In this document: positions 549-59,184 of the stretch, piece by piece | Layout of the letters: the number at the start of each line of letters is the position of its first letter | How positions within the stretch are numbered: position 1 is the stretch's first letter | Assembly (NCBI GenBank): GCA_041658985.1 | Contig: JBAZZC010000003.1 | Span: 10,540-74,539, forward strand | Length of the DNA: 64,000 nt | Source of the DNA: Minisyncoccota bacterium | GTDB taxonomy: Bacteria > Patescibacteriota > Minisyncoccia > Phycocordibacterales > DATDWN01 | Direction: 5' to 3' | Made by a program: the position numbers and the translations under genes | The notes under the pieces: model-generated | What the model saw: only the letters and a program-made list of their open reading frames with translations | What the model was told of the DNA's origin: nothing | Database searches by the model: none

Positions 549-550
549 GA

Positions 551-593
551 TAATTTCTAATTAACCTAATTATTCTAATTTCTAAATAATAAC
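551..593. repeat. AT-rich inverted-repeat arm (left) flanking the four-helix-bundle gene cassette
   Basis: TAATTTCTAATTAACCTAATTATTCTAATTTCTAAATAA here; its reverse complement recurs at 961-1010, and related copies lie at 14488-14583 and 48603-48712. Confidence 0.6.
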
Positions 594-610
594 CAATAAT
601 TAATTAACAA

Positions 611-958
611 TTATTTTACTTTTTTAAATATACTATTAAAAATCAGATTTAATTCTTTTGCCTCAATCCACAACTTAATAGCTTTTTCTCTGCAATCTGG
701 AACGGCAACAGCCACCATTCGTAAGAAATGTTTCGTTTCCCTAGATTCTTTTTTACAGATTCCAATTTTATGTTTAAAGTCTTTACCACTTTCAGCATCA
801 TCCGCTTCACAGTAATTAGCTCCAACACTTGTGCCACATTTTACTAACTGATTTATTATCGGTTTAGTTATTTCATTTTTTATCAAACCAGAACAAAAGA
901 TAATAATATTTTCTCCAAATTTAGCAGTTCTTTCTTCAAGGTCGAATTTGTTATTCAT
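611..958 (-). CDS. four-helix-bundle protein (TIGR02436-like, 23S rRNA intervening-sequence protein family)
   Basis: 115 aa helical protein whose sequence resembles the four-helix-bundle family. It is bracketed by inverted repeats. Confidence 0.6.
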   Translation of the reverse strand: MNNKFDLEERTAKFGENIIIFCSGLIKNEITKPIINQLVKCGTSVGANYCEADDAESGKDFKHKIGICKKESRETKHFLRMVAVAVPDCREKAIKLWIEAKELNLIFNSIFKKVK

Positions 959-960
959 TG

Positions 961-1010
961 GGGTTTATTTAGAAATTAGGTCAATTAGAATAATTAGGTT
1001 AATTACCCCC
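961..1010. repeat. AT-rich inverted-repeat arm (right) of the four-helix-bundle cassette
   Basis: The reverse complement shares 23 identical bp (TAATTAACCTAATTATTCTAATT) plus TCTAAATAA with 551-593. Confidence 0.6.
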
Positions 1011-1015
1011 ATGCT

Positions 1016-5069: not shown

Positions 5070-5729
5070 ATGAAAACATTGAGATTGCTCATGGTGTTAG
5101 CGGTCGTCGTTTCGGTGGCGGCCTGCGCCGGCAAGGTGGCTCCGGCCACCATTCCGCTCAGTGAGCGGATCGCCGAACTCAAGGCCCAGGAGGCCGAGAG
5201 GTTGGCGAACGAGACCCCCGAGGACCGGGCCATCAGGGCTCGCGCCGAGGAAATCGAGCGCGAGATGGCGACGAAGAAGGCCCGCGAGGAGGCCAAGAGG
5301 AGTGGCTCGCCGGCCATGCGCAAGGCCATTAAGGAGTTTGAGAAGGCCAAGAAGGCCATCACGAACTCCGGCCTTCAGGGGTGCGACCCGAGTACGGTCG
5401 ACGTCCACCCGGATGTGGCGCCGCGTCGGAACGCTAGTTCAACCGTGAAGGTTCAGGCGTTCAATCAGGGGCAGGTCCCCGTTGATATCTATGAGCCAAA
5501 ACACGGGCTAGTCGTTCGCAACCTGTGCCCCGGAGGGTCACTGACCCTCTTCCGGGCACGTCGGCTCGGGATTGACCCGGACTACATCCAGTTTCGGTAT
5601 GTCGCCAAGGCGATATTGTCGGACGGGCGGATGCTGACGGCTGAGTCACAGCAATACCAACTATCCAAGTACGACTGGTCGTCCGGTCGAGGGCGACAGG
5701 AGTACGACTGGTACATCGAGGTTCGATGA
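5070..5729 (+). CDS. Hypothetical secreted lipoprotein, GC-rich (about 62% GC), probably horizontally acquired
   Basis: Signal peptide with a lipobox (LAVVVSVAACAG). A strong promoter and Shine-Dalgarno precede it. The high GC makes the overlapping antisense ORFs artefacts. Confidence 0.6.
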   Translation: MKTLRLLMVLAVVVSVAACAGKVAPATIPLSERIAELKAQEAERLANETPEDRAIRARAEEIEREMATKKAREEAKRSGSPAMRKAIKEFEKAKKAITNSGLQGCDPSTVDVHPDVAPRRNASSTVKVQAFNQGQVPVDIYEPKHGLVVRNLCPGGSLTLFRARRLGIDPDYIQFRYVAKAILSDGRMLTAESQQYQLSKYDWSSGRGRQEYDWYIEVR

Positions 5730-5925: not shown

Positions 5926-5932
5926 AATATAA

Positions 5933-6066
5933 ATCCGCACACTAATTTTGCCATCGTTCTATTTTTTAAAACAAAACCAATACCATTTTTATTTTCTTAC
6001 TCAACTTCACACAAGTTAATATATTTGATTTAGAACTAAAAATAATGGCAAATTTAGTGTGCGGAT
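5933..6066 (+). repeat. R135 inverted-repeat element, copy B
   Basis: ATCCGCACACTAATTTTGCCAT ... ATGGCAAATTTAGTGTGCGGAT. It ends 22 nt before the tsaE start codon. Confidence 0.8.
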
Positions 6067-6088
6067 AAAATTATGCTAATATGTCTTT

Positions 6089-6523: not shown

Positions 6524-6531
6524 TGGTATAA
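6522..6531 (+). promoter_or_regulatory. Extended -10 element (TGGTATAAT) placing a transcription start at the first nucleotides of R135 copy C
   Basis: TG at 6524-6525 and TATAAT at 6527-6532, about 7 nt upstream of the element start at 6535. Confidence 0.35.
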
Positions 6532-6534
6532 TTC

Positions 6535-6669
6535 ATCCGCACACTAAATTTGGCATTATCTCATAGTTGCTATACATGTGGTTATGTCAAATTTAATAAT
6601 CATGTTTAAATATAAGTATGCATCTAGAATTTGAGATAATAGCAACGATGCCAAAATTAGTGTGCGGAT
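6535..6669 (+). repeat. R135 inverted-repeat element, copy C
   Basis: ATCCGCACACTAAATTTGGCAT ... ATGCCAAAATTAGTGTGCGGAT. It ends 3 nt before the polA ATG. Confidence 0.8.
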
Positions 6670-6672
6670 AAA

Positions 6673-9024
6673 ATGGCCAAACCTAAAAGCAAAAAAACAC
6701 TGGTACTTCTTGATGTGCATGCTATTTTGCATCGTGCCTATCACGCCCTTCCGGAGTTTGAATCAAGTAAAGGTGAGCCGACGGGAGCTCTTTATGGGCT
6801 TTGCACCATGCTTATCAAGCTGGTAAAAGATTTTAATCCAGACTACATTATTGCTTGTTATGATTTGCCAGAGCCGACCTTACGACACGAAGCATATGGA
6901 GAATATAAGGCTGGTCGTAAAAAAGCTGACGATAATTTAGTAAAGCAGTTGGAGAGGTCAAAGGACGTTTTCAAGGCCATGAATGTGCCGATGTATTCGT
7001 CCCCAGGATTTGAGGCAGACGATATGCTTGGCACCATTGTTGAGAGCTTAAAAAATAACAAAGATATAGATATTGTTATTGCTTCTGGAGATATGGACAC
7101 CATGCAACTTATAAATGGTGATAGGGTGCGGGTTTACACTTTAAAGAAGGGAATAAAGGACACCATTATTTATAACGAGAAAGCAGTGATGGAAAGATGG
7201 GGCTTTGCTCCAAAACTTTTAACCGACTACAAGGGGTTGAGGGGCGACCCGTCGGATAACATAATTGGTATTGTGGGTATTGGGGAAAAAACAGCAGAAG
7301 AATTAATTCAAAAATTTGGTTCGATAGAAAATATATATAAAGAAATTAAAAATCCAAAATCTAAAATTCACAAAGAAGTTAGACCGAGGGTTTTAGAACT
7401 ACTTAAAACGGGAGAGGAAGAAGCTTTGTTTAGCAAAATGCTGGCTACCATTCGAATTGATGCACCGATTTATTTTACAATGCCCACAAAAATTTGGCGG
7501 GATGATATAGATATGAAAAAAGTTCAAGATTTGTTTTCACAATTTGAATTTAGAATGCTGGGGCAGAAATTTGCCGAGAGTCTATCTCTGGACATGCCAG
7601 AAAGAGCAGAAATAATGGCTAATCCTAAGGACGTATTTGAAGTTGGACTATTGCTCTGGGTAGTGGATTCAAACAAAACAAATTCTACGTTAGATGATAT
7701 TTTGTCGTATACCAGAAGCGACAATCTATCTGATGCTCGGAAGGTTTTGGAGAAGACAATAAAAGACCAAGACCTATCTTTTGTTGTAGAAAAAATAGAA
7801 AAGCCACTTATGCCAATTGTTGAGACAATGAAAGAGGTTGGTATAAAAATAGACACCGAAAGACTAAAAATTTTATCAAAGAAATACCACACAGAATTAT
7901 CGTCACTTGAGAAAAAAATATGGAAAATTGTCGGTGAGGAATTTAATATTAATTCACCAAAACAATTAGGTGAGATGCTTTTTGTTAAAATGGGGCTTAA
8001 AGTAAAAAACCAAAAGAAAACAGCTAGTGGTGGATTTTCTACAAAGGAATCAGAGTTGGAAAAATTAAAGGAAGAGTATCCGATTGCTGGATTAATCCTG
8101 GAGTATCGTAAATTAGCAAAACTTCTTGGCACTTATATAGATACCATGCCAACCCAAGTAGATAAAGGTGATAGGTTACATGCTAATTTTTTACAAGCTG
8201 GGACAACCACTGGCAGAATGGCAAGTCAGGACCCGAATTTGCAAAACATTCCAAATAAAACAGAGCTTGGTCGAGAAATTCGTAAATCGTTTATTGCCGA
8301 AAAAGGCTGGAAACTTATTTCGTTTGATTATTCCCAGATAGAGCTTCGTATTGCTGCTTTCTTGTCGGGGGATAAGAAACTAATTGAGATTTTTAAAACA
8401 GGCCAGGATGTCCACACTGCTGTGGCTTGCGAAGTTTTCGGAGTCAAACCAGAAGAGGTAACAAAGGAGATGAGAATAAAAGCAAAAACCATAAATTTTG
8501 GTGTGATGTATGGAATGGGTGTAACTGCTCTACAGAAAAATATTAAAACAAACAGAGAGGAGGCCCAGGAATTTTTGAATGGATATTTTAATAAATTTTC
8601 TGGACTAGCTGAATATCTAGAAAAAGTAAAAAGGGAAACGGCCCAAAAGGGCTTTACCTCGACATTTTTTGGTCGCAGGAGATATTTTCCTGAAATCAAT
8701 TCCAGACTACCTTTTATGAAGGCCCAAGCAGAAAGAATGGCAGTCAATGCGCCGATACAGGGGACAGAGGCAGACATAATCAAAATGGCTATGATAGAAA
8801 TTGATAGATTTATAAAAAGTAAGAATTTAGAAAAGAACGTCCAATTGCTTTTGCAGGTTCATGATGAGTTGGTATACGAAGCAAAAGAAAATATAGTTAA
8901 TTCAATAACTCCAGAAATAAAAGTAATAATGGAAAATATAATTGACCCAAAAAAAATACACGGAATAGTTTGTGTAGCGAATAGCTCCTTTGGAGACAAT
9001 TGGGCAGAAATGATATCAGTATAA
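6673..9024 (+). CDS. polA: DNA polymerase I (5'-3' exonuclease plus polymerase domains; 3'-5' exonuclease region reduced)
   Basis: N-terminal FEN-like domain, a helix-hairpin-helix, and polymerase motifs A (DYSQIELR), B (RIKAKTINFGVMYG) and C (QVHDELV). 783 aa. Confidence 0.9.
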   Translation: MAKPKSKKTLVLLDVHAILHRAYHALPEFESSKGEPTGALYGLCTMLIKLVKDFNPDYIIACYDLPEPTLRHEAYGEYKAGRKKADDNLVKQLERSKDVFKAMNVPMYSSPGFEADDMLGTIVESLKNNKDIDIVIASGDMDTMQLINGDRVRVYTLKKGIKDTIIYNEKAVMERWGFAPKLLTDYKGLRGDPSDNIIGIVGIGEKTAEELIQKFGSIENIYKEIKNPKSKIHKEVRPRVLELLKTGEEEALFSKMLATIRIDAPIYFTMPTKIWRDDIDMKKVQDLFSQFEFRMLGQKFAESLSLDMPERAEIMANPKDVFEVGLLLWVVDSNKTNSTLDDILSYTRSDNLSDARKVLEKTIKDQDLSFVVEKIEKPLMPIVETMKEVGIKIDTERLKILSKKYHTELSSLEKKIWKIVGEEFNINSPKQLGEMLFVKMGLKVKNQKKTASGGFSTKESELEKLKEEYPIAGLILEYRKLAKLLGTYIDTMPTQVDKGDRLHANFLQAGTTTGRMASQDPNLQNIPNKTELGREIRKSFIAEKGWKLISFDYSQIELRIAAFLSGDKKLIEIFKTGQDVHTAVACEVFGVKPEEVTKEMRIKAKTINFGVMYGMGVTALQKNIKTNREEAQEFLNGYFNKFSGLAEYLEKVKRETAQKGFTSTFFGRRRYFPEINSRLPFMKAQAERMAVNAPIQGTEADIIKMAMIEIDRFIKSKNLEKNVQLLLQVHDELVYEAKENIVNSITPEIKVIMENIIDPKKIHGIVCVANSSFGDNWAEMISV

Positions 9025-10386: not shown

Positions 10387-10660
10387 CAATTAAAAAATCT
10401 CTGTGGTGGGGATTTTTTAATTGTGCGCCCGGAGCAAGAGTGTGGGGCACTCTTGCGTCAGGAATCGAACAGATTCACGGTTTACGCTCGCAGAAGCGAG
10501 TGTTGTGAATCTGCGTTTTAAATTCTGATGAGTGACGACGAATCAGAATTTAAAAAGATTCCGTCCAGAAAAGGTGTACTGACCATGTAATGGTCGATAT
10601 TCCTGCCGGGCGCACAAACCAAAAAATCTCCACTGCTGGAGATTTTTTGCACTAGTGTGC
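10387..10660. repeat. tRNA-Lys 3'-end duplications and hairpin repeats (scars of site-specific integration)
   Basis: A direct copy of the tRNA 3' end (CGATATTCCTGCCGGGCGCACAA) lies at 10595-10617. An inverted, interrupted copy lies near 10425-10475. Hairpins AAAAAATCTCC..GGAGATTTTTT are shared with repeats at 18566-18703 and 23259-23396. Confidence 0.55.
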
Positions 10661-14115: not shown

Positions 14116-14484
14116 TTATAGAGGCAGATCTAAAGCAAAAAATCCTGGGCCAGTGAACAATAAAGACAATAGAATAACTTTTATTACCACATATAAAATT
14201 TTCTTCTCTGTTGAAAAAGTAGCTGAGTTATTTTCTAAAAAATAATCAAAACAAATTACTAAGATGGAAACAATAGCTGCTATTTGTGTATAAAAACCAG
14301 CAATGAGTAAAATACCAGACAAAATATAAATAACTGCTGACCAACTGTAGATTTTCTGGTTACGCTCTTTTCCGAGATATATCATAAACAGACCTACAGT
14401 TAGACGGAGTAAGGTTGGAGCGATAAGTCCAAGAAAAAATAATTGTGGAAAAACAGCTAATGGATGCATGAAAATAGTATACAA
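14116..14484 (-). CDS. DoxX-like small membrane protein
   Basis: Four predicted transmembrane helices; 122 aa. Confidence 0.4.
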   Translation of the reverse strand: MYTIFMHPLAVFPQLFFLGLIAPTLLRLTVGLFMIYLGKERNQKIYSWSAVIYILSGILLIAGFYTQIAAIVSILVICFDYFLENNSATFSTEKKILYVVIKVILLSLLFTGPGFFALDLPL

Positions 14485-14487
14485 TAA

Positions 14488-14583
14488 CTAATTTCTAATT
14501 ACTAATTAATCTAAATAATGACCAAACCCCAATAATCAGCTAGTATTTCTTTAGAAATTAGAAATTAGGTTAATTAGAAATTT
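14488..14583. repeat. Cargo-less pair of four-helix-bundle-cassette-type inverted repeats (MITE-like)
   Basis: CTAATTTCTAATTACTAATTAATCTAAATAATGACC, a 27-bp spacer, then TTAGAAATTAGAAATTAGGTTAATTAGAAATTT. Confidence 0.5.
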
Positions 14584-14612
14584 GTTTGGTATGTGTTATA
14601 TTGCTATAAATT

Positions 14613-15095
14613 ATGAAAAAATCTAACCTTCAGATTTCTGTCTTACTGCACAATATTCGTAGTACTCACAATGTTGGGTCTATTTTTCGGACCTCTGATG
14701 CTCTGGGTATCACCAAGATTTATTTATCTGGATTTTCTCCTACACCGGTAGATAAATTTGGAAAACCAAGAAAAGATATCACAAAAGTAGCCTTGGGTGG
14801 AGAAAAAAATATTTCTTGGGAGTATTCAAAAAATCCAGAAAAAATAATTAAAAAACTAAAAAAATCTAACTATCAAATAATTGGTTTGGAACAAACAAAA
14901 AATTCACAGGATTATAAAAAGGTAAAAATTAAATCCCCGACTTTATTTATAGTAGGGAATGAGGTGGAAGGGGTTGAAAGAAAGATTTTATCTCTTTGTG
15001 ATGTTCTAGTTGAAATACCAATGAAAGGTAAAAAGGAGTCACTAAACGTTTCTGTGGCTTTCGGGGTGGCTCTCTTTAGAATACTTAATATTTGA
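14613..15095 (+). CDS. SpoU/TrmH family RNA 2'-O-methyltransferase
   Basis: SPOUT motifs HNVGSIFRTSDALG and IVGNEVEGV. Confidence 0.75.
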   Translation: MKKSNLQISVLLHNIRSTHNVGSIFRTSDALGITKIYLSGFSPTPVDKFGKPRKDITKVALGGEKNISWEYSKNPEKIIKKLKKSNYQIIGLEQTKNSQDYKKVKIKSPTLFIVGNEVEGVERKILSLCDVLVEIPMKGKKESLNVSVAFGVALFRILNI

Positions 15096-15972: not shown

Positions 15973-16011
15973 ATTTCTCTATTTTACAACAAAATTACCC
16001 AAAATGCTTTA

Positions 16012-16146
16012 CCCGCACACCAATTTTGGCATTGTCTCTATATTGCCACATCAATAATTATATAAAGAACGAGTCATTTTCATCTAAGTAAGGTTGTTTA
16101 ATTATCTTGAGAGACTGGGCAATGATGCCAAATTTGGTGTTCGGGT
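16012..16146 (+). repeat. R135 inverted-repeat element, copy D
   Basis: CCCGCACACCAATTTTGGCAT ... ATGCCAAATTTGGTGTTCGGGT. It ends exactly at the mutM stop codon. Confidence 0.8.
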
Positions 16147-18137: not shown

Positions 18138-18558
18138 GTTAAACTTTGTTTATATGACCGGAAAGAGTAAAAGCGACAGAATTTTTAGTATTGATATATG
18201 GAGATATTTAGTAAACTTTTGGACACTGGTTATTTATATTATTGTTGTAGCTGACTTTTTTATGAGGAATAGTCTGGTGGAATTTCTTGGGCCAATCTGT
18301 GCTATCTACATTGCTCTTCTGGCTGTCTATACTACCCAAAAAGAGTTTGAACGATGGCATGATGAAAATATTGGCAAACATCCCGGGGAAGTATATGTAA
18401 TAGTTTGGACTGCCTTAATTGTTGTATTAATTGTTCTAGAAATTATTTACCAAGAGAGTTATGTATTACCAAGTGAAGCTTTTTCAACATATGTTGTAGT
18501 GATGGGTATATTAGCAATCTCAAGAAGGTCAAAGGCAAATTATTGTCGTATAAAATAA
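18136..18558 (+). CDS. Hypothetical membrane protein
   Basis: Three or four transmembrane helices; no recognisable family. Confidence 0.4.
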   Translation: MLNFVYMTGKSKSDRIFSIDIWRYLVNFWTLVIYIIVVADFFMRNSLVEFLGPICAIYIALLAVYTTQKEFERWHDENIGKHPGEVYVIVWTALIVVLIVLEIIYQESYVLPSEAFSTYVVVMGILAISRRSKANYCRIK

Positions 18559-18565
18559 AAACTTT

Positions 18566-18703
18566 GTGGTCAGGAATATTTTGCTCGTCGTCACTCGCAA
18601 AATTTCATGACCCTGACTCAGCTGTTTTTTCTGTTGAAAAAACATGCTTCCGTCCAGCACATAACAATAAAAATCTCCAGCAGTGGAGATTTTTATTGTT
18701 ATG
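18566..18703. repeat. tRNA-flanking hairpin repeat X1
   Basis: About 85% identical to 23259-23396. Contains a 22-bp-stem hairpin GCACATAACAATAAAAATCTCC..GGAGATTTTTATTGTTATGTGC abutting the tRNA 3' end. Confidence 0.7.
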
Positions 18704-18775
18704 TGCTCACGGCAGGAATCGAACCTGCATTTCTCCCTTCGCAGGGGAGTGTCTTATCCATTCAACGACGCGAGC
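18704..18775 (-). tRNA. tRNA-Arg (anticodon GCG as read; the exact anticodon needs checking)
   Basis: Acceptor GCTCGCG/CGTGAGC, anticodon stem CTCCC/GGGAG with loop CTGCGAA, T-arm GCAGGTTCGATTCCTGC. Confidence 0.65.
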
Positions 18776-18802
18776 TATAAAAAAAAGAGTAACACAAAGA
18801 TA

Positions 18803-19893: not shown

Positions 19894-20277
19894 ATGAAAT
19901 ATCTTGGTATTGATTATGGTTCAAAACGAATTGGCCTGGCGGTTTCTGATGAGGCTGGTAGTTTTGCTTTTCCCTTGAAAGTTTTAAGTAATTCAGAAAA
20001 TCTAATTAAAGAATTGGTTGAAATATGTAGGGAAAACAATGTGGAAGGGGTTGTGGTGGGGGAGTCAAAAGATTATCTTCAAAAAGACAATGAGATTATG
20101 GATGAAATTTTGCCATTTGTTGAGGATTTAAAAAATGTACTTAACCTGCCAATATATATGCACCCAGAATTTTTGACTTCCCAGGAGGCCGAGAGATTGC
20201 AGGGTAAAAACGATATGCATGATGCTAGTGCAGCGGCTCTTATTTTAAAAAGTTATTTGGATTCATCCGCACACTAA
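19894..20277 (+). CDS. ruvX: Putative pre-16S rRNA nuclease / Holliday junction resolvase-like protein YqgF (RuvX)
   Basis: MKYLGIDYGSKRIGLAVSD N-terminus typical of YqgF. Confidence 0.8.
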   Translation: MKYLGIDYGSKRIGLAVSDEAGSFAFPLKVLSNSENLIKELVEICRENNVEGVVVGESKDYLQKDNEIMDEILPFVEDLKNVLNLPIYMHPEFLTSQEAERLQGKNDMHDASAAALILKSYLDSSAH

Positions 20278-20395
20278 GTTTAGCATCGTTGCCATTTTTT
20301 GTGGTTTGGCTAACGTTCAATTTTTTGTAATATCCCGTGTATTATAGTTGTATGTGTTGTGGCAACAAAAATAATGCTAAACTTAGTGTGCGGAT
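20265..20395 (+). repeat. R135 inverted-repeat element, copy E
   Basis: ATCCGCACACTAAGTTTAGCAT ... ATGCTAAACTTAGTGTGCGGAT. The left arm overlaps the ruvX stop codon. Confidence 0.8.
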
Positions 20396-20419
20396 AAAAA
20401 AATAATAAAAATTAATTTT

Positions 20420-22916: not shown

Positions 22917-23252
22917 ATGAAAAATTTACTCCAAAAAATTAAATTCTTTTATACTAAGATAATAAAGAAAGAAGAAATATATAAGAGACGAGCAATAAGA
23001 CCTGCGCAAGACTGGTCTATTATTCTGATTATAAATATTGTTATTTTTTGTATATTACTTATTTTTGCTTCCTATTTTTATATACAAATTAGAAGAGATA
23101 AGTTGTTTGCTATAACCGAAGCGAACATAATAAATGAGACGAAAATAAATTCAGTGCTTCTAAAGAAAACAATAAACGATATTAATCTTCGTGAGGAATT
23201 AACCAACAACCTTAAAAATAGTGGAATAAGGTTTCCTGACCCATCTATGTAA
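22917..23252 (+). CDS. Small transmembrane hypothetical protein (possibly PilP-like)
   Basis: One transmembrane helix, translationally coupled to the preceding gene. Confidence 0.35.
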   Translation: MKNLLQKIKFFYTKIIKKEEIYKRRAIRPAQDWSIILIINIVIFCILLIFASYFYIQIRRDKLFAITEANIINETKINSVLLKKTINDINLREELTNNLKNSGIRFPDPSM

Positions 23253-23258
23253 ACTTAT

Positions 23259-23396
23259 GTGGTCAGGAATATTTTTGTTTCCGTCAAAACAAAAATTTCA
23301 CGACCCTGACTCGGCTGTTTTTTCTACTGAAAAAACATGCCTTCGTCTAGCACATAACAACAAAAATCTCCAGCAGTGGAGATTTTTGTTGTTATG
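23259..23396. repeat. tRNA-flanking hairpin repeat X2
   Basis: About 85% identical to 18566-18703. Same hairpin abutting the 3' end of tRNA-Arg(TCT). Confidence 0.7.
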
Positions 23397-23468
23397 TGCT
23401 CTCGGTTGGAATCGAACCAACATCAAAGCCTTAGAAGAGCTCTACTCTATCCATTGAGCTACGAGAGC
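23397..23468 (-). tRNA. tRNA-Arg (anticodon TCT)
   Basis: Acceptor GCTCTCG/CGAGAGC, anticodon loop CTTCTAA, T-arm GTTGGTTCGATTCCAAC. Confidence 0.75.
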
Positions 23469-23550
23469 GATAACGATAGGTTATCATAGAAAATCATTTA
23501 ATTCCACAAAATATGTGTTATTATTTTCTCTATAACACTCAAATAAATCT

Positions 23551-26410: not shown

Positions 26411-26517
26411 AAAATAAAAAGCATCCGAAAAATAATATCTTTTGAATAGTTATGTTTTATAAAATATTTTTATAGGTCAGTCGGTACTGGTTTATATTTA
26501 ATAGGTCTATTTTTCTT

Positions 26518-26539
26518 ATCATACGATATATCGTATGAT
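26518..26539. promoter_or_regulatory. Perfect 22-bp palindrome ATCATACGATATATCGTATGAT, 9 nt upstream of the HTH gene
   Basis: Self-complementary. Identical copy at 26937-26958. The core TACGATATATCGTA also occurs at 59159-59184. Confidence 0.6.
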
Positions 26540-26548
26540 ATAAATACT

Positions 26549-26935
26549 ATGCCTCACATATCAAAACAATTTTTAGAAAAGAAGAAGTTTCAAGATATCC
26601 ATAGCCAGTTATTTAAAGTTATTAATATGCTTGTGAGAGAAGGAAAGACAACGGCGATTTTAAATGAACTTTTTACAAAGACAGAAAAATTAATGCTTGC
26701 AAAAAGACTAGCTATTATATTTATGTTGGATCAAAAAGAATCATCTTATGCCATATCAAATATTCTTAAGGTAAGCCAATCAACTGTTGCACTAATGTCA
26801 CTTAAACAAGAAAATGGGAAATATTCGGATATAATAAAAGAAATGAGGAAGCAAAATAATTTTTGGATACAACTTCAGAAAATTATTCCACCACGTGTTG
26901 GCAGAAATCGTTTTAAGAATTTTCTTCAGTTCTAA
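26549..26935 (+). CDS. TrpR/YerC-YecD-like helix-turn-helix DNA-binding protein
   Basis: 128 aa with HTH-like region KRLAIIFML ... SYAISNILKVSQSTV. Exactly bracketed by identical palindromes. Confidence 0.45.
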   Translation: MPHISKQFLEKKKFQDIHSQLFKVINMLVREGKTTAILNELFTKTEKLMLAKRLAIIFMLDQKESSYAISNILKVSQSTVALMSLKQENGKYSDIIKEMRKQNNFWIQLQKIIPPRVGRNRFKNFLQF

Positions 26936-26936
26936 T

Positions 26937-26958
26937 ATCATACGATATATCGTATGAT
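26937..26958. promoter_or_regulatory. Second copy of the 22-bp perfect palindrome, 2 nt after the stop codon
   Basis: ATCATACGATATATCGTATGAT. Confidence 0.6.
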
Positions 26959-27073
26959 ATTATATGTATAAAGGAATAAACGACATGTCTATATTAAAGA
27001 GAAAAAAGTTGAAAATCAATGAATCTTTAAGTACTATTGGAATATCTCGGGTTTGAGAGTGTCGTCATTTAAA

Positions 27074-36032: not shown

Positions 36033-36067
36033 ATTGTGTTATAATGACAGTATTATTAAATTAAATT

Positions 36068-36203
36068 CATCCGCACACTAACATTAGTATTGTGTCTTAC
36101 GTTGCTCTACTGGGTATTAAACAGAGTAATGAAGGATAAAATGATGAAGTAAACAAATCAAGATTAGACACAATTGCAACGATACCAATGTTAGTGTGCG
36201 GAT
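36068..36203 (+). repeat. R135 inverted-repeat element, copy F
   Basis: ATCCGCACACTAACATTAGTAT ... ATACCAATGTTAGTGTGCGGAT. The interior is related to copy A. It ends 8 nt before the next ATG. Confidence 0.8.
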
Positions 36204-36211
36204 AAAATTTT

Positions 36212-44999: not shown

Positions 45000-45178
45000 T
45001 AAGCAGTAAAGAGACCAATCACCTCTATGGCTTTGGGAAGAAAGCAGAAATGCAAATAGAACCCAACGGGTGGCCCGTTATAGCCGTAAAGAGAAGTAAG
45101 CAAGGTGGTACCACGAGAAACTCGTCCTTGCATAGCAAGTGTTTGCTGTGTAGGGACGGGTTTTTTATTACAAAAAAT
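45000..45178 (+). promoter_or_regulatory. T-box riboswitch leader with an AUC (Ile) specifier upstream of ileS
   Basis: T-box sequence AAGGTGGTACCACGAG (45102-45117). A 16-bp terminator stem plus GGTTTTTT follows at 45122-45168. The specifier loop ACCAATCAC carries AUC followed by a purine, in the AGAG/CTCT stem at 45010-45030. Confidence 0.55.
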
Positions 45179-48100
45179 ATGGAAAAAGAAAAAATAGAAA
45201 AAAGTGAAGTTGCACTGAAAGAAGAAAAAATCCTGGAGTTTTGGGAGAAAAGTGAAATTTTCAAAAAAACCCTAGAAAAAGAGGCACCAAAAGGGGAGTT
45301 TGTCTTTTACGATGGGCCTCCATTTGCCACTGGTTTGCCTCATCAGGGGACATTGCTTGGTTCCATTGCTAAGGACCTAATTCCTCGCTACAAAACGATG
45401 CGAGGCTACAGTGTGCGTCGTAGATGGGGTTGGGATTGTCACGGTTTACCTATAGAAAATCTTGTAGAGAAGAAACTTGGCCTCAAGCATAAAAAAGATA
45501 TTGAAGAAATGGGTATAGAAAAATTTAACGAAGAATGTCGCAGTCAAGTGTTGACATATGTTCATGATTGGAAAGTGTACATTGACCGCGTGGCTCGTTG
45601 GGTTGATTTTGAGGGCTCTTACAAAACCATGGATTCTAGTTATACCGAAAGTATTTGGTGGGCACTCAAACAAATGAATGACAAAGGCTTGCTTTACGAA
45701 GGCAGAAAAGTTCTTTTGTATTGTCCAAGATGCGAGACTCCTCTTTCTAAAGCAGAGATTGCTATGGACAACTCATATAAAGATATAACGGAAGAGGCGG
45801 TGACAATAAAGTTTAAAATAAAAAATCCAGAAAAACATAAATTACCCCAGAACACATATTTACTTGCATGGACAACAACCCCGTGGACATTACCTGGAAA
45901 CGTTGCACTTGCAGTTGGTAATGATATTGAATATCAAGTAATGAAAAAGGGGCAAGAAACCTATGTTGTTTCTACACAGGTATGGAAACAGGGAATCTTG
46001 GGAGAGTTTGGCAACCTAGCAATAGGAGATGTTCGTAAGGGGGCTGATTTGGTTGGTTTGGAATACGAACCACTTTACGAAATACCTGTTGTAAAAAATA
46101 GTGGCAAAAAAGCTTGGTATGTTACCTCGGCTGATTTTGTTAATACAGAAGAGGGAACGGGTATTGTGCATACGGCGGTAATTTATGGAGAGGATGACTA
46201 TCAACTTGGTCTAAAAGTTGATTTACCAATGGTTCCACTGCTTTTGCCAAATGGAGAGTTTAATAATGAGGCTCCGGAATTTATTCGTGGAATGTATGTG
46301 AAAAAGGCCGAGAGATATATAAAAGAAGATTTGGAAAAAAGAGACTTGCTTTTCAGTAAGACCATGAACACTCACTCATACCCTCATTGTTATCGTTGCG
46401 AAACCCCCCTTATATACAACGCTCTCTCAAGCTGGTTTATTAATATTCAAAAAATAAAAAAACAAGTTATTGATTTGAATGAAAATATAAACTGGGTTCC
46501 GGACCATCTTAAACATGGACGTTTTCTAGATATTGCTCAAAATGCTCCGGACTGGACAATAAGCAGAAATCGCTATTGGGCATCGCCACTGCCAATCTGG
46601 AAAGATGACAAGGGTAAATATATTGTTATTGGAAGTATTTCTGAACTTAAGGATTACATTGGTCGTCGCAATAATTATTTTCTCTTACGTCATGGAGAAT
46701 CGGAAGGAAATGCAAAGGGTGTTATAAGTTGTAAGAAAGATGGTAAAGACTCACTGACTTCTCTTGGTAGAGAAGAATCTCTCTCTTCTGTAAAAGAACT
46801 CAAAAATAAAAAAATAGACATTATTATTTCATCGCCTTTTGTAAGGACACGTGAAACTGCCGAAATTATTGCCGAAGAGATGGGGATTCCAAAAGAGGAA
46901 ATTATCTATGATGATTTGCTTGGTGAGATTTCTTGTGAAAAGTACGATGGGGAATTGTGGACAGGTTTTAATTTCAGGAAAAAAGAAGAAGGGGTTGAAA
47001 CTCCACGCCAGGTTCTCTCGCGAACAATGAAAGTTATGTATGGATTAGATAAAAAATATGAAAGCAAAAACATTTTAATTATTGGACACGGGGGACCACT
47101 TAGAATAATCAAACTTGCGTCAAGTGGTTTAGCAGAGGAAGATATCATGAAGCATTATTATGATGACCCACCAAGAAACGCAAAAACGATTGACTGTGAT
47201 TTTGTGGCATTGCCTCACAATGGGGCATATGAAATTGATTTACACAGGCCATACATTGATGAGGTTGTGCTACATGACAAAGACGGTTCTATTCTCAAGC
47301 GAATACCAGAGGTTATTGACTGTTGGGTTGAATCTGGGTCAATGCCTTTTGCCGAATATAATTATCCGTATTCAAATAAAGAAGAATTTGAGAAAAGAGC
47401 TCCAGGAGATTTTGTGGCTGAGTATATAGCCCAAACCAGAACTTGGTTTTACTACATGCATGTCATCTCTACGGCTCTTTTTGGACGGGAATCTTTTAAA
47501 AATGTTTTGACTACCGGAAATATTCAAGCCAGTGACGGAAGTAAAATGAGTAAGTCAAAGAGTAACTACACAGACCCATTGCTTCTCATGAATAAATACG
47601 GTGCTGACGCTCTGCGTTACTACATGATGACTTCTGTTGTGATGCAGGCAGAGGATTTAAACTTTAAAAATGATGATGTCAAAGAAGTTAACCAAAGAAT
47701 GTTAAATATCTTGCGAAATGTTTTATCTTTCTATGAAATGTATAAGACGGATTTTACTGGAATCCCAAGCAAAAATAATGTTTTGGATAAATGGATTTGT
47801 TCTAGGTTGGCAGTTTTGCACAAAGAAGTAACTGAGGGTCTGGAGAAGTATGACACAATCCGTTCTGGGCGGCCGATAAGACTTTTTATAGAAGATTTAT
47901 CAACTTGGTATTTGCGTCGCTCAAGAGACAGATTCAAATCAGAAAACTTAGAGGAGAGAAAAGAGGTCTCAGAATGTACCGCTTTTATTTTGGTAGAACT
48001 TGCAAAAATAATGGCTCCGTTTACGCCATATATTGCCGAGGAAATTTATCAGGGTGTTAAAGGAAAAAATCATAAAGAAAGTGTACATTTAGAAAATTGG

Positions 48101-48604
48101 ACAGAAAGCATGGAGGATTTTTTAGACAGGGAACTTATTGTTCAAATGCAAAAAGTCAGGGAGGTGGTTACCCAAGCCTTAGATTTACGTCAGAAAGCTG
48201 GGTACAGTGTTAGACAACCTCTGCCATCTCTTGTTGTGTCGCAAAATTTTTCTAAAGAACTATTAGATATTATTGCTGATGAGGTCAATGTAAAAGAAAT
48301 AAAGGTCTTGGAAGGAAGTGAGGTAAGATTGGACACAACCTTAACCGAAGAATTGAAAAACGAAGGAATTGCTCGTAGTGTTATTCGTGGTATCCAGGAT
48401 GTAAGAAAAAATGAAGGTCTTAATCCAGGCGAGAGAATAAAGCTGATTATTTGTGCAGATGAAAAAATAAAATCTGTGATTGTTTCTTTTGAGATTTTAA
48501 TCAAATCTCCAACACAGGTGGTGGAGATAATATACTCAAACGAAAAACAAACTCACGCCATTTCTTTGGGTTCCGGCGAGATGACGGTAACAGTATCTAG
48601 ATAA
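45179..48604 (+). CDS. ileS: Isoleucine--tRNA ligase with an inserted histidine-phosphatase (PGAM-like) domain
   Basis: PHQGT (a HIGH variant), WTTTPWTLPGN, and KMSKS. An internal segment of ~190 aa carries the LLRHGESEGN and IIGHGGPL catalytic motifs of the histidine phosphatase superfamily. Start moved to MEKEKIEK, downstream of the T-box. Confidence 0.85.
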   Translation: MEKEKIEKSEVALKEEKILEFWEKSEIFKKTLEKEAPKGEFVFYDGPPFATGLPHQGTLLGSIAKDLIPRYKTMRGYSVRRRWGWDCHGLPIENLVEKKLGLKHKKDIEEMGIEKFNEECRSQVLTYVHDWKVYIDRVARWVDFEGSYKTMDSSYTESIWWALKQMNDKGLLYEGRKVLLYCPRCETPLSKAEIAMDNSYKDITEEAVTIKFKIKNPEKHKLPQNTYLLAWTTTPWTLPGNVALAVGNDIEYQVMKKGQETYVVSTQVWKQGILGEFGNLAIGDVRKGADLVGLEYEPLYEIPVVKNSGKKAWYVTSADFVNTEEGTGIVHTAVIYGEDDYQLGLKVDLPMVPLLLPNGEFNNEAPEFIRGMYVKKAERYIKEDLEKRDLLFSKTMNTHSYPHCYRCETPLIYNALSSWFINIQKIKKQVIDLNENINWVPDHLKHGRFLDIAQNAPDWTISRNRYWASPLPIWKDDKGKYIVIGSISELKDYIGRRNNYFLLRHGESEGNAKGVISCKKDGKDSLTSLGREESLSSVKELKNKKIDIIISSPFVRTRETAEIIAEEMGIPKEEIIYDDLLGEISCEKYDGELWTGFNFRKKEEGVETPRQVLSRTMKVMYGLDKKYESKNILIIGHGGPLRIIKLASSGLAEEDIMKHYYDDPPRNAKTIDCDFVALPHNGAYEIDLHRPYIDEVVLHDKDGSILKRIPEVIDCWVESGSMPFAEYNYPYSNKEEFEKRAPGDFVAEYIAQTRTWFYYMHVISTALFGRESFKNVLTTGNIQASDGSKMSKSKSNYTDPLLLMNKYGADALRYYMMTSVVMQAEDLNFKNDDVKEVNQRMLNILRNVLSFYEMYKTDFTGIPSKNNVLDKWICSRLAVLHKEVTEGLEKYDTIRSGRPIRLFIEDLSTWYLRRSRDRFKSENLEERKEVSECTAFILVELAKIMAPFTPYIAEEIYQGVKGKNHKESVHLENWTESMEDFLDRELIVQMQKVREVVTQALDLRQKAGYSVRQPLPSLVVSQNFSKELLDIIADEVNVKEIKVLEGSEVRLDTTLTEELKNEGIARSVIRGIQDVRKNEGLNPGERIKLIICADEKIKSVIVSFEILIKSPTQVVEIIYSNEKQTHAISLGSGEMTVTVSR

Positions 48605-48712
48605 TTTCTAATTTTCAATTCTCAATTTTCAAACAATTTCCAATTATAAAATTTCTGAATTAGTAGATTAATTTATTTTTTAGACATTAAAAATTAGAAA
48701 TTGAAAATTTTT
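48603..48712. repeat. AT-rich inverted-repeat pair related to the four-helix-bundle cassette IRs, between ileS and recO
   Basis: TAATTTCTAATTTTCAATTCTCAATTTTC ... AAAAATTAGAAATTGAAAATTTTT. Shares the TAATTTCTAATT start with 551-593. Confidence 0.45.
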
Positions 48713-49300
48713 CTCATGTCCTATCACATTTACACCACAGATGGAATAATTTTAAAACGCAAAACATTTGGAGAAGCCAATGTCTTGTTACATGTTTTAA
48801 CTTATGATTTAGGTTTAATTATTGCTTCGGCTCAGGGGGCCAGACTGTCTTCTTCTAAGCTTCGTTCGGCCCTTCAAGAATATACACTTAATTCCATCTC
48901 GTGCGTTAAAGGTAAAAATGGATGGAAAATGACAAACGCTGTAGAAAAAGAAAACTTCTTTTTTAATTATCCTGCTTATTCTCACAAAACTTTGTCCCAA
49001 GTTGGCTTTGTCTTATTAAAGATGATTCCTGGAGAATCTCCCCACAAAGAAATTTTTCAAACCATAAAGACAGGTTTTGAATTTCTGAAATTTTTGCCGG
49101 AGAAACATGTATCAGATTTTGAGGTTTTGATTGTTTTGCGTATTTTACATCAGCTTGGATATGTAGAAAACAAAAAAGACACAGATAGCTTTTTAGAAAA
49201 TAATGAAGAGTGGAACGAATTAATTCTTGAAAAAGTACTAAAAAACAAGAAAAACATCATTCCAATAATAAACAAGGCCCTAAAGGAAAGTCAGTTATAG
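48701..49300 (+). CDS. recO: DNA repair protein RecO
   Basis: N-terminal OB fold (DGIILKRKTFGEANVLLHVLT) and a Lys-rich region (KGARLSSSKLRS). TTG start. Confidence 0.65.
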   Translation: MKIFLMSYHIYTTDGIILKRKTFGEANVLLHVLTYDLGLIIASAQGARLSSSKLRSALQEYTLNSISCVKGKNGWKMTNAVEKENFFFNYPAYSHKTLSQVGFVLLKMIPGESPHKEIFQTIKTGFEFLKFLPEKHVSDFEVLIVLRILHQLGYVENKKDTDSFLENNEEWNELILEKVLKNKKNIIPIINKALKESQL

Positions 49301-51272: not shown

Positions 51273-52661
51273 ATGACTGAAAACAAGAATGACAGAATGG
51301 AAAAGATAGTCTCGCTTTGCAAGAGACGTGGTTTTGTTTATCCATCCTCAGAAATATATGGTGGTTTTGCCGGTGTGTATGATTTTGGACCAATGGGAGT
51401 TGAGCTTGAAAATAATCTCAAAACACATTGGTGGAAATGGATGGTTCATAAAAGACAAGATGTTGTTGGACTAGACTCTAGTATTTTTATGAGCCCACAA
51501 ATTTGGGAGGCCTCTGGTCATACTAAGGGTTTTTCTGACCCAATGGCTGAGTGTAAGGAATGCAATACCAGAATAAGAGTCGATAAGGTACTAAACGATT
51601 TAGGAATTTTTGCTGATGAAAAAATGTCCGAAGAAGAAATCAACAAGCTTTTTGATGAGAATAAATCAAAAATTAAATGTCCTAATTGTAAAAAGCAAAA
51701 TTTTACAAAAGTCAGGAAGTTTAATGTGTTGGTAAAGTCCAATCTTGGTGATTTTACTGAATCCAATTCTAGTCCGTCATATTTGAGAGGAGAAACTTGC
51801 CAAGGGATATATGTAAATTTCAAAAACGTTCTTGATTCACAGCATCCAAAATTGCCTTTTGGTATTGCTCAGATTGGTAAAGCATTTAGGAATGAAATTT
51901 CTGCAAGGCAGTTTCTTTTTAGACTCAGGGAGTTTGAACAGATGGAAATGGAATATTTTACAAGGCCAAAGGATGAAATGGGTGAATATGAAAAATTAAA
52001 AGAATATAGATGGAAGGCAATTTTAAGTCTGGGAATTAAAGAAGAAAATTTGCGATGGAAAAAACACGATAACTTGGTTTTTTACGCAAAAGAAGCATAT
52101 GACATAGAATACAACTTTCCATGGGGATTTGATGAACTAGAGGGGATTCATGCTCGTGGAAATTACGATTTAACACAACATTCTAGTGGGTCAGGAAAAG
52201 AATTGGTCTATCAAGACGAAGAAACAAATGAAAAATTTATTCCGCACATTGTTGAGTCGTCTGGTGGTGTCAGTCGGTTATTTTTTGCAATTCTTTGTGA
52301 CGCTTATCATGAAGACGAAATGGGCGGAGAGACTAGGATTCTTCTAAAACTAAAACCAAGTATTGCACCAATTAAGGTTGCTGTTTTTCCACTTCTAAAA
52401 AACAAACCAGAACTTGTAAATAAAGCCAAGGAAATTTTTGGTTTATTAAATGAAGAAATTCAACCGGTAACATTTGACGATAATGGAAACATAGGCAAAC
52501 GATATCGTAGACAAGATGAGATTGGCACACCATTCTGTGTGACGATTGATTTTGAAACAATTGAAAAAGATGCTGGAGTAACTGTTCGTAATCGTGACAC
52601 TGGAGAACAAGAAAGGGTTCCTGTTATTGAGCTAGTTTCATATCTTAAATCTAAAATATAA
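51273..52661 (+). CDS. glyQS: Glycine--tRNA ligase (dimeric alpha2 type) with a Zn-ribbon insertion
   Basis: Class II motifs (FRNEISARQFLFRLREFEQMEME), a C-terminal anticodon-binding domain, and a CxxC...CxxC insert. Confidence 0.85.
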   Translation: MTENKNDRMEKIVSLCKRRGFVYPSSEIYGGFAGVYDFGPMGVELENNLKTHWWKWMVHKRQDVVGLDSSIFMSPQIWEASGHTKGFSDPMAECKECNTRIRVDKVLNDLGIFADEKMSEEEINKLFDENKSKIKCPNCKKQNFTKVRKFNVLVKSNLGDFTESNSSPSYLRGETCQGIYVNFKNVLDSQHPKLPFGIAQIGKAFRNEISARQFLFRLREFEQMEMEYFTRPKDEMGEYEKLKEYRWKAILSLGIKEENLRWKKHDNLVFYAKEAYDIEYNFPWGFDELEGIHARGNYDLTQHSSGSGKELVYQDEETNEKFIPHIVESSGGVSRLFFAILCDAYHEDEMGGETRILLKLKPSIAPIKVAVFPLLKNKPELVNKAKEIFGLLNEEIQPVTFDDNGNIGKRYRRQDEIGTPFCVTIDFETIEKDAGVTVRNRDTGEQERVPVIELVSYLKSKI

Positions 52662-52793
52662 ATCCGAACACTAACTTTGGCATCGTTGCACATCTCCACA
52701 CGTAGATGTAAACGATAGTCTAGATGTAGATTCATATTTTGTATTAATACTCACTTAGCAACAAGGAGATAATGCCAAAGTTAGTGTGCGGAT
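52662..52793 (+). repeat. R135 inverted-repeat element, copy G
   Basis: ATCCGAACACTAACTTTGGCAT ... ATGCCAAAGTTAGTGTGCGGAT. It begins 1 nt after the glyQS stop codon. Confidence 0.8.
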
Positions 52794-52963
52794 AAGTTTT
52801 TACAAAACAAGATTTAGGTGGTACTATTGGCCTATGGATCCCGTTAGAAATCCCTTGGTTGATTTGTAAAAAATGGATTTTAACGAGAAACCTAATTATT
52901 AAGATATATTAACTAATTAAATGCGGAAAGGCTTTAGTAAAAGGCTTTCCTATTTCTAACGGG

Positions 52964-59158: not shown

Positions 59159-59184
59159 ATTTACTACGATATATCGTAGTAAAT
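59159..59184. promoter_or_regulatory. 26-bp perfect palindrome ATTTACTACGATATATCGTAGTAAAT (same core as the palindromes flanking the HTH gene)
   Basis: Shares the 14-bp core TACGATATATCGTA with 26518-26539 and 26937-26958. Preceded by GAATGATAC-type tandem repeats at 59130-59156. Confidence 0.5.

Follow-up and report, generated by a model that had tools for sequence, protein, structure and literature searches.

The 64,000-nt stretch of contig JBAZZC010000003.1 from a Minisyncoccota bacterium that we analyzed (hereafter, the window) carries, at positions 611-958 on the minus strand, a gene for a 115-amino-acid (aa) four-helix-bundle (4HB) protein of the S23p/23S rRNA intervening sequence (IVS) protein/Avd-like family. 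The gene is bracketed by two inverted arrays of short repeats, and gene and arrays together make up a cassette that is inserted in sense orientation between yebC and ruvC and fills the spacer of that pair almost completely. The neighbors of the 4HB gene are ruvB (1555-2607), a short yebC of 176 aa (1016-1546), ruvC (72-548, start codon 546-548), and lepA; ruvB, yebC, and ruvC are encoded on the same (minus) strand as the 4HB gene, which therefore stands in sense orientation within the operon.

A preliminary description of this DNA had the 4HB gene flanked by ~40-bp inverted repeats with a 23-bp identical core, and this proved correct: the 23 nt at 558-580 are the exact reverse complement of those at 983-1005, which gives 2 matches in the window versus 0 expected from 100 shuffles. 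The limits proposed for the arms (551-593 and 961-1010) were roughly right, the arrays proper spanning 552-587 and 967-1004, and a repeat search widened the inverted arms to 557-603 and 951-997. More specifically, each arm consists of about five CTAATT-type cores arrayed 7 or 9 nt apart. The 5′ array (967-1004, minus strand), upstream of the 4HB start codon, reads AATT-AAC-CTAATT-ATT-CTAATT-GAC-CTAATT-T-CTAAAT on the minus strand, followed by AAACCCCA and the ATG, the last of its five cores stopping 8 nt before that codon; on the plus strand, it appears as ATTTAG at 967-972, AATTAG at 974-979, 983-988, and 992-997, and an outer AATT at 1001-1004. The 3′ array (552-587, minus strand) is the reverse complement of the 5′ type, with AATT at 552-555, CTAATT at 557-562, 566-571, and 575-580, and CTAAAT at 582-587 on the plus strand, and it stops 3 nt before the ruvC start codon. 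Between arrays and gene lie two inner segments, also read on the minus strand, namely, AAACCCCA directly before the ATG (959-966) and a 3′ segment running from the stop codon to the 3′ array (588-610). In the predicted fold, CCCCAAUG of the former pairs with AUUGG 3′ of the stop codon, that is, ATTGG of the latter with CCAAT at the start codon, and a similar (A)AATCCCAATG inner segment recurs in many related loci and in copies that lack the open reading frame (ORF).

When the minus strand was folded as RNA over 540-1020, the arms were paired in both the minimum free energy and the centroid structure (z = -3.7), and the arm-arm duplex energy was -42.3 kcal/mol. Clusters of CTAATT occurred 4 times in the window versus 0.36 expected, exclusively at the 4HB locus and at 14488-14582. 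Thus, to the question raised in the preliminary description of whether the repeat is merely random AT-rich sequence, the answer is no, both the 23-nt match and the CTAATT clusters exceeding expectation. A generic period-7 detector run over the window found only 14488-14508; the mixture of 7- and 9-nt spacing in this subfamily explains why the 4HB arms escaped it.

The 115-aa protein scored 56.5 bits against TIGR02436 "four helix bundle protein" (cut-off 24) and 36.5 bits against PF05635 23S_rRNA_IVP (cut-off 33.8), and it matched PDB entry 2RLD at E = 2.5e-10. Its AlphaFold model comprised four helices (pLDDT 94.9) and superimposed on the S23p-family structures 2RLD and 2GSC with TM-scores of 0.84 and 0.81-0.83, respectively, in agreement with the earlier assignment of 611-958 as a 4HB gene. 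The TM-score to Avd was 0.67-0.73, at ~12-15% sequence identity in the structural alignment. Structure 2RLD contains five chains, and pentamers are reported for Xcc0516 (PMC4990558) and Avd (10.1101/2023.10.23.563531). An alignment of the protein (29 homologues) had 53 invariant columns. A relaxed Pfam scan revealed no second family such as HEPN, and neither IMG/VR viral contigs (no relative) nor PHROGs and PADLOC (no match) returned the protein; thus, no phage vector or listed defense role is evident.

Relatives of this protein number in the thousands, the top 120 being 73-100% identical to it. In species-representative genomes (one genome per species), we confirmed at least 538 copies and examined the best 80 (67-93% identical); individual comparison loci are given below by their L numbers. 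The hosts of these 80 loci included Paceibacteria, Doudnabacteria, Microgenomates-type members of the candidate phyla radiation (CPR), other CPR classes, a complete Ignavibacterium chromosome, and Caldithrix, with ~75% identity between the 4HB proteins of CPR bacteria and the Ignavibacterium chromosome. Gene and arrays were conserved together across these phyla: a significant inverted repeat surrounded the ORF in 73/78 loci, a forward CTAATT array lay upstream in 71/80, and a reverse array lay downstream in 72/80. Core spacing was 9 nt in 196 cases (spacers AAC, GAC, ATT, and GAT) and 7 nt in 94 (spacer usually T), with 8 nt being rare; five cores per arm was the modal array, and the order of units differed between the two ends of one copy. 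The arm-arm duplex energy was -30.1 kcal/mol versus -14.2 kcal/mol for shuffled arms. The 4HB ORF was the only one in full copies and was intact in every one of them.

The sites occupied by these copies were diverse, since the proteins flanking the 80 loci fell into 117 clusters, 89 of them singletons, and several genomes carried two 4HB copies on different contigs. Orientation was strongly biased, the upstream gene being co-directional with the 4HB gene in 73/76 loci (96%) and the downstream gene in 63/73. The upstream stop codon lay a median of 3 nt before the outermost core, often overlapping it, and the next host ATG followed a median of 13 nt past the downstream array; the cassette thus fills intercistronic spacers so tightly that neither a conventional promoter nor a Shine-Dalgarno sequence would fit. 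Outside the arrays, we saw no duplication in 70 junction pairs, where the terminal palindrome AATT would mask a target-site duplication of 2-4 nt, and no transposase adjoined the cassette in the loci examined. Two related loci held a further 4HB gene with arrays of another kind. In L067 (880-1360), it is a pseudogene (49% identical) with a frameshift, between GTTAAAn/TTTAAnn arrays, so two cassette subfamilies with different repeats can occur in one genome; in L007 (352-500), it is a 65% identical gene, after which comes a hairpin made of AATnCCn heptamers.

We compared the yebC-ruvC junction among relatives to address whether the cassette splits a pair that is usually contiguous, as the preliminary description had it. 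Consistently, the gap was only 1, 23, or 31 nt and held no 4HB gene in L092, L096, and L088, whose RuvC proteins are 66-79% identical to that of the window, whereas L002 and L003 carried the 4HB cassette at the same site as in the window. The junctions of L082 and L085 (RuvC 87% identical) contained other short AT-rich or hairpin fillers. An exact-protein look-up of RuvC and YebC returned no empty site at the strain level, only contigs ending within arrays. More specifically, independent short-read assemblies of the same organism broke off within the CTAATT arrays to either side of the cassette (L176, 1-33; L178, 3032-3072; L179, 1393-1433), as repeated sequence would lead one to expect, which suggests that 4HB cassettes are likely under-assembled in metagenomes. 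Across the ruvB-yebC-ruvC regions of RuvC relatives (L082-L161), both operon spacers were hot spots for other inserts in related CPR genomes, among them unrelated hairpins of 80-200 nt, either GC-rich or AT-rich, an ORF for a 116-aa membrane protein (L083 and L087), and ruvB-yebC gaps of 350-980 nt. The 176-aa YebC (versus ~240 aa in family models) had the same short form in L002 and L003, and the Pfam "second and third domain" model matched it in two separated stretches.

Copies without a gene were found both in the window, as the preliminary description had it, and in other genomes. The clearest in the window, at 14488-14582 (plus strand), has three CTAATT cores per arm and a 33-nt middle piece. 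Its forward array consists of CTAATT at 14488-14493, 14495-14500, and 14502-14507 and CTAAAT at 14511-14516, followed by the middle piece (AATGACCAAACCCCAATAATCAG...), and its reverse array consists of AATTAG at 14556-14561, 14563-14568, and 14572-14577 with an outer AATT at 14579-14582. Because only 33 nt separate these arrays and a 20-nt exact stretch, AATTTCTAATTAACCTAATT, is common to this element and a 4HB arm, it is indeed the same repeat type without a gene, as had been proposed for 14488-14583. It lies between divergent genes, one at 14116-14484 (minus strand) and a SpoU methylase gene at 14613-15095 (plus strand), and the lone RNA hairpin (14480-14600) folded no more stably than shuffled sequence.

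The earlier proposal of the same repeat at 48603-48712 stood in part. This element (48602-48712, plus strand) occupies the spacer between the ileS stop codon (48602-48604) and recO, up to 3 nt short of the ATG of the latter (48716), and with a 7-nt period it carries TAATT, CTAATT, TCAATT, TCAATT, and TCAAAC, opposite AATTAG-A-AATTGA-A-AATT in the other arm. Position and periodicity thus fit the family architecture and each arm retains one canonical CTAATT core, but the remaining cores are mostly of the TCAATT type and the hairpin (48595-48720) folded no better than shuffled sequence; tentatively, it is at best a probable diverged ORF-less relative and not a clear copy. Among related genomes, ORF-less hairpins with both arrays and inner CCCAATG...ATTGGG pieces were present in L032, L056, L068, and L081, and solo arrays stood just upstream of host start codons in L005, L010, L061, and L069. 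In L068 (4418-6985), two ORF-less CTAATT hairpins (5165-5277 and 6701-6833) lie in frame and stop-free within one long ORF, reading ...NDEFLISNY(R/S)N..PNPND...LGQLEI..., apparently close to the two splicing blocks (N- and C-terminal) of what resembles an intein (CVTGDTLL ... VYFGGIIAHNT). The arrays can also bracket other cargo: in L022 (816-2080), they hold an additional 227-aa ORF in antisense and a GC-rich terminator hairpin along with the 4HB gene, and in L008 (1-540), an array pair without a 4HB gene surrounds other repeats over ~450 nt.

The layout extends to distant 4HB subfamilies. We drew 13 distant 4HB genes (29-39% identical to the window protein), whatever sequence surrounded them, from cyanobacterial (Nostocales, Planktothrix, Pseudanabaena, and Euhalothece), Bacteroidota (two), Chloroflexota (Chlorohelix), and Treponema plasmids. 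Each proved to be flanked by period-7 tandem arrays built on different units (such as TAATTCG, AATTCAA, AAGTCGG, AATCCCC/AATCGTA, ATGAAGG, GAAAGnG, TTACCAG/TGGTCAC, and ACAGT/TAACTGA-like), which in most cases were inverted with respect to each other, and the period-7 autocorrelation was 15 or more of 21 on at least one side of the gene at 13/13 loci (range 12-21), with a control mean of 9.3. In particular, TAACTGA/ACAGT-type units flanked a Bacteroidota 4HB gene (L170), and AATTCAA/TTTTGAA units flanked those of Nostoc/Aulosira. One unit was common to L163 and L174, which are 79% identical, in partial support of a match between protein and unit. We rejected strict protein-to-unit specificity as a firm claim, given L162 and L164 (see below), and the notion that five cores per arm match a pentamer is speculation only, the distant subfamilies having from 4 to >30 units.

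Like their close relatives, the distant 4HB genes mostly lay between co-directional genes, the settings being helicase-4HB-methylase of DISARM/BREX-type operons (three times), csx2-4HB-cas1, RND adaptor-4HB-RND permease, and fabH-4HB-peptidase. The DISARM/BREX-like operons (L162, L168, and L169) were on plasmids of Dolichospermum, Chlorohelix, and Planktothrix, with the 4HB gene and its heptamer arrays in an identical position in these three distant taxa, between genes for an SNF2-type helicase and a DNA methyltransferase. The 4HB family has been listed before as "associated" with cas loci (PMC3936711; PMC10910872), and the intercistronic cassette layout probably explains these reports.

With moderate confidence, we interpret the window locus as a horizontally mobile, IVS-type selfish cassette that consists of a promoterless 4HB gene between inverted short-repeat arrays and resides in an mRNA operon. 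Mobility is required by the 117 neighborhood clusters, the ~75% identity between CPR and Ignavibacterium proteins, and the empty junction in close relatives; dependence on host transcription, as opposed to a MITE-like (miniature inverted-repeat transposable element-like) DNA element, is suggested by the 73/76 sense-orientation bias. On this interpretation, the cassette would be co-transcribed in the ruvB-yebC-ruvC message, where its arrays may form a long AU-rich stem, with 6-bp helices at the cores and unpaired spacer bases between them. By analogy with rRNA-borne IVSs, RNase III would probably cut the array stem, leaving the flanking host RNA functional and releasing the 4HB RNA. The 4HB protein, being a homologue of the pentameric RNA-binding Avd, may in turn recognize the periodic stem that the arrays of its cassette would form, and ORF-less hairpins such as 14488-14582 could be internal-deletion derivatives. 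Spread to new sites, whether by array-array recombination or by cDNA through a reverse transcriptase of the type found in diversity-generating retroelements (DGRs), is speculative.

Several observations weigh against this interpretation. Most directly, the arms show no locus-specific covariation, which leaves the stem unproven: arms of the same locus did not exceed arms paired across loci in alignment score (38.4 versus 37.5; p = 0.27), in spacer identity (13.9% versus 11.4%, no excess), or in duplex energy (-30.1 versus -29.3 kcal/mol). We therefore dropped the idea, after these three tests, that each copy keeps its own complementary stem. As the arms of one locus are no more complementary than those of unrelated genomes, the 23-nt identity in the window is incidental, and the arms are motif arrays in fixed orientation rather than a locus-specific stem or transposon-type terminal inverted repeats. 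Moreover, most array stems would be interrupted every 6 bp and be poor RNase III substrates, and no RNase III signature motif was detected in the 64-kb window or in the 20-kb locus L001, a result that says nothing about the genome as a whole. At 14488-14582, the neighboring genes diverge, and read-through transcription would not be expected. An rRNA gene context was found in 0/17 related loci (Rfam, which returned tRNAs and one riboswitch only), and L162 and L164, despite 76% identity, have different units. Finally, the ORF of the Coxiella IVS is thought to be unexpressed and decaying (PMC4990558), so a function of the protein may not be general.

Alternatively, the cassette could be a classical non-autonomous DNA transposon, along the MITE-like lines of the preliminary description, whose arms serve as terminal inverted repeats for a transposase encoded elsewhere that moves it by cut-and-paste. 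Inverted arms, many insertion contexts, presence/absence polymorphism, and dispersed copies, which number at least 538 for the gene and include ORF-less, non-coding derivatives, would all suit such an element, and the ends of Tn7 and Mu likewise carry several binding-site repeats each. Yet the junctions show no visible target-site duplication outside their AATT palindromes, cores of 6 nt at intervals of 7/9 nt are too short for usual transposase sites, and the unit order differs between the ends. Furthermore, a 96% sense-orientation bias is unexpected for a DNA transposon, an intact and strongly conserved 4HB ORF in every full copy would be needless for passive cargo, and no transposase was associated in the loci examined. 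We therefore consider this explanation quite improbable and disfavor a classical MITE mechanism. The earlier idea of a small mobile cassette is largely right as regards the inserted gene with its arms, the ORF-less derivatives, and the empty junctions in relatives. A MITE-like element with terminal inverted repeats is not supported, given that the arms are arrays of 6-nt cores, that 73/76 copies are in sense, and that no transposase partner was found, and the element is better described as an IVS-type 4HB cassette with repeat-array arms.

A resident regulatory module, in which the arrays are host cis-regulatory elements by start codons and the 4HB protein is a host regulator binding them, would account for the 3′ array abutting a host ATG and for the solo arrays just upstream of host start codons in L005, L010, L061, and L069, and translational or regulatory roles have been proposed in print for heptamer arrays (PMC4679880; 10.1101/2022.06.06.494920). 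It fits poorly with the presence of gene and arrays in at least 117 unrelated neighborhood clusters, with the ~75% protein identity between CPR bacteria and the Ignavibacterium chromosome, and with the absence of the insert from the same junction in close relatives, and we regard it as unlikely. Regulatory and mobile readings are not mutually exclusive; it is a purely resident role that we disfavor. Chance, that is, low-complexity AT-rich sequence around an ordinary small gene, might be invoked because the genome is AT-rich (30-40% GC) and shuffled sequence folds as well as the small hairpins at 14480-14600 and 48595-48720, but its probability is negligible: the 23-nt inverted match (0 expected in shuffles), the 4 CTAATT clusters at two loci only (versus 0.36 expected), and the same arrays around the homologous gene in >70 other genomes refute it.

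The link to 23S rRNA IVSs drawn in the preliminary description was apt. The Coxiella burnetii IVS has the same layout, with an S23p ORF, three tandem GACAGAT heptamers plus one degenerate directly before the ATG, a 28-bp terminal stem, and cleavage by RNase III at the first repeat; IVSs have long been suspected to be selfish or mobile, the ORF perhaps serving mobility (PMC4990558). Some CPR rRNA genes also carry 23S_rRNA_IVP ORFs (10.1101/2024.02.27.582315). Thus, IVSs of the Coxiella burnetii, Leptospira, and Xanthomonas/Brucella type resemble the window cassette in encoding a PF05635 protein in sense to the host transcript, in having terminal inverted repeats that form a stem around the ORF, in the existence of ORF-less versions, and in tandem short repeats directly upstream of the ATG (in Coxiella, and in 71/80 relatives here). 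In contrast, the window cassette lies between protein-coding genes, flanked by yebC and ruvC, and not in helix 25 or 45 of a 23S rRNA gene; Rfam returned only tRNAs on the window, with no RNA family over the arms and no rRNA context. The window unit is CTAATT with mixed 7/9-nt spacing as opposed to GACAGAT in Coxiella, and its 4HB protein is strongly conserved and not decaying. Excision by RNase III without religation would apply to the window cassette by analogy with Coxiella.

Avd of DGRs (PDB 4DWL and 8UB7) has the four-helix-bundle fold and belongs to the same Pfam family (PMC10053308), and its pentamer binds RNA such that five protomers contact one stem-loop via flipped-out bases (10.1101/2023.10.23.563531). 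Unlike Avd, the window 4HB gene is not adjoined by a reverse transcriptase, template repeat, or variable repeat, and a crude motif scan found no reverse transcriptase in the 64-kb window, a weak negative for part of a genome. MITEs and REPINs (repetitive extragenic palindrome doublets forming hairpins) are similar to the ORF-less copies (14488-14582; L032, L056, L068, and L081) as short, non-coding, hairpin-forming, multi-copy intergenic derivatives, whereas the window cassette shows no visible target-site duplication outside its AATT ends and has no identified transposase or RAYT partner, its full-length "parent" encodes a 4HB protein instead of a transposase, and its arms are repeat arrays. 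Integron gene cassettes share a promoterless, single sense ORF reliant on upstream transcription and imperfect inverted repeats, but they have one attC rather than repeats on both sides; neither an integrase nor attI goes with the window-type cassettes, which are scattered singly in housekeeping operons.

Among intergenic tandem repeat arrays, one type is the cyanobacterial short tandemly repeated repetitive (STRR) sequences. Intergenic heptamer arrays have been described with TAACTGA in Beggiatoaceae, cyanobacteria, and Bacteroidetes and with TTTTGAA in Nostoc; they often end a few nt before start codons, contain stops in all frames, lack a Shine-Dalgarno sequence, and are suspected of horizontal spread, and a translational or regulatory role was proposed for them, with the binding protein unidentified (PMC4679880; 10.1101/2022.06.06.494920). 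Tandem units of ~7 nt, location inside operons, and a patchy cross-phylum distribution are common to these arrays and ours. They differ in that the published arrays were described mostly as one-sided and direct, with no mention of a 4HB gene between inverted arrays, and in that the window unit is CTAATT with spacing alternating between 7 and 9 nt. We found no literature that links 4HB genes generally to flanking inverted short-repeat arrays or to non-rRNA intercistronic cassettes, although most subscription journals were not covered and an earlier description is possible.

These comparisons suggest a wider and more tentative proposal, which we put forward as possible but doubtful: the 4HB (S23p/Avd-like) family might be the missing partner of intergenic heptamer arrays (STRR-type, Beggiatoa TAACTGA, and CPR CTAATT), with each pentamer binding the interrupted stem of its own inverted arrays; 23S rRNA IVSs would then be the rRNA-resident subset of RNA-level selfish cassettes, and solo or ORF-less arrays would be footprints or landing pads. 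Two puzzles bear on this proposal, namely, that the 23S rRNA IVS ORF has had no known function for ~30 years and that neither a binding protein nor a means of spread is known for the heptamer arrays of cyanobacteria, giant sulfur bacteria, and Bacteroidota. They are physically linked in our data, in which the 4HB gene is regularly bracketed by inverted heptamer-type arrays, the two moving together between phyla, with insertion between genes of ordinary operons and not only into rRNA. The same layout would explain why 4HB genes recur in CRISPR-Cas, DISARM/BREX, and other operons, and it offers a simple annotation rule for thousands of "four helix bundle protein" genes and for residual small hairpins in streamlined CPR genomes.

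The window has other features besides the cassette. A second intergenic hairpin family of ~140 nt, unrelated to the arrays, is present in six full copies and one half copy within the 64 kb (2699-2839, 5926-6079, 6528-6674, 16004-16041, 20258-20408, 36063-36209, and 52655-52806); its arms read ATCCGCACAC[TC]AA..TT.G.AT.GT plus the reverse complement, and a similar ATCCGCACAC piece is found in L008, a locus of another CPR genome. A 223-nt direct repeat with 79% identity (18558-18780 and 23251-23473) spans two tRNA-Arg genes (anticodons GCG and TCT) together with an adjoining hairpin, AAAAATCTCCAGCAGTGGAGATTTTT, that also occurs at 10622. In the isoleucyl-tRNA synthetase (45050-48604; 1184 aa), residues 544-697 make up an inserted histidine-phosphatase domain (PF00300; E = 5e-24) that separates the two halves of the catalytic domain. 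Lastly, in the region 26517-26960, an ORF for a Trp-repressor-like helix-turn-helix protein (26549-26935; PF01371, E = 3e-8) has the same 25-nt palindrome, TATCATACGATATATCGTATGATAT, on either side of it (at 26517 and 26936), and a similar third lies at 59160; these palindromes are possibly operator sites.

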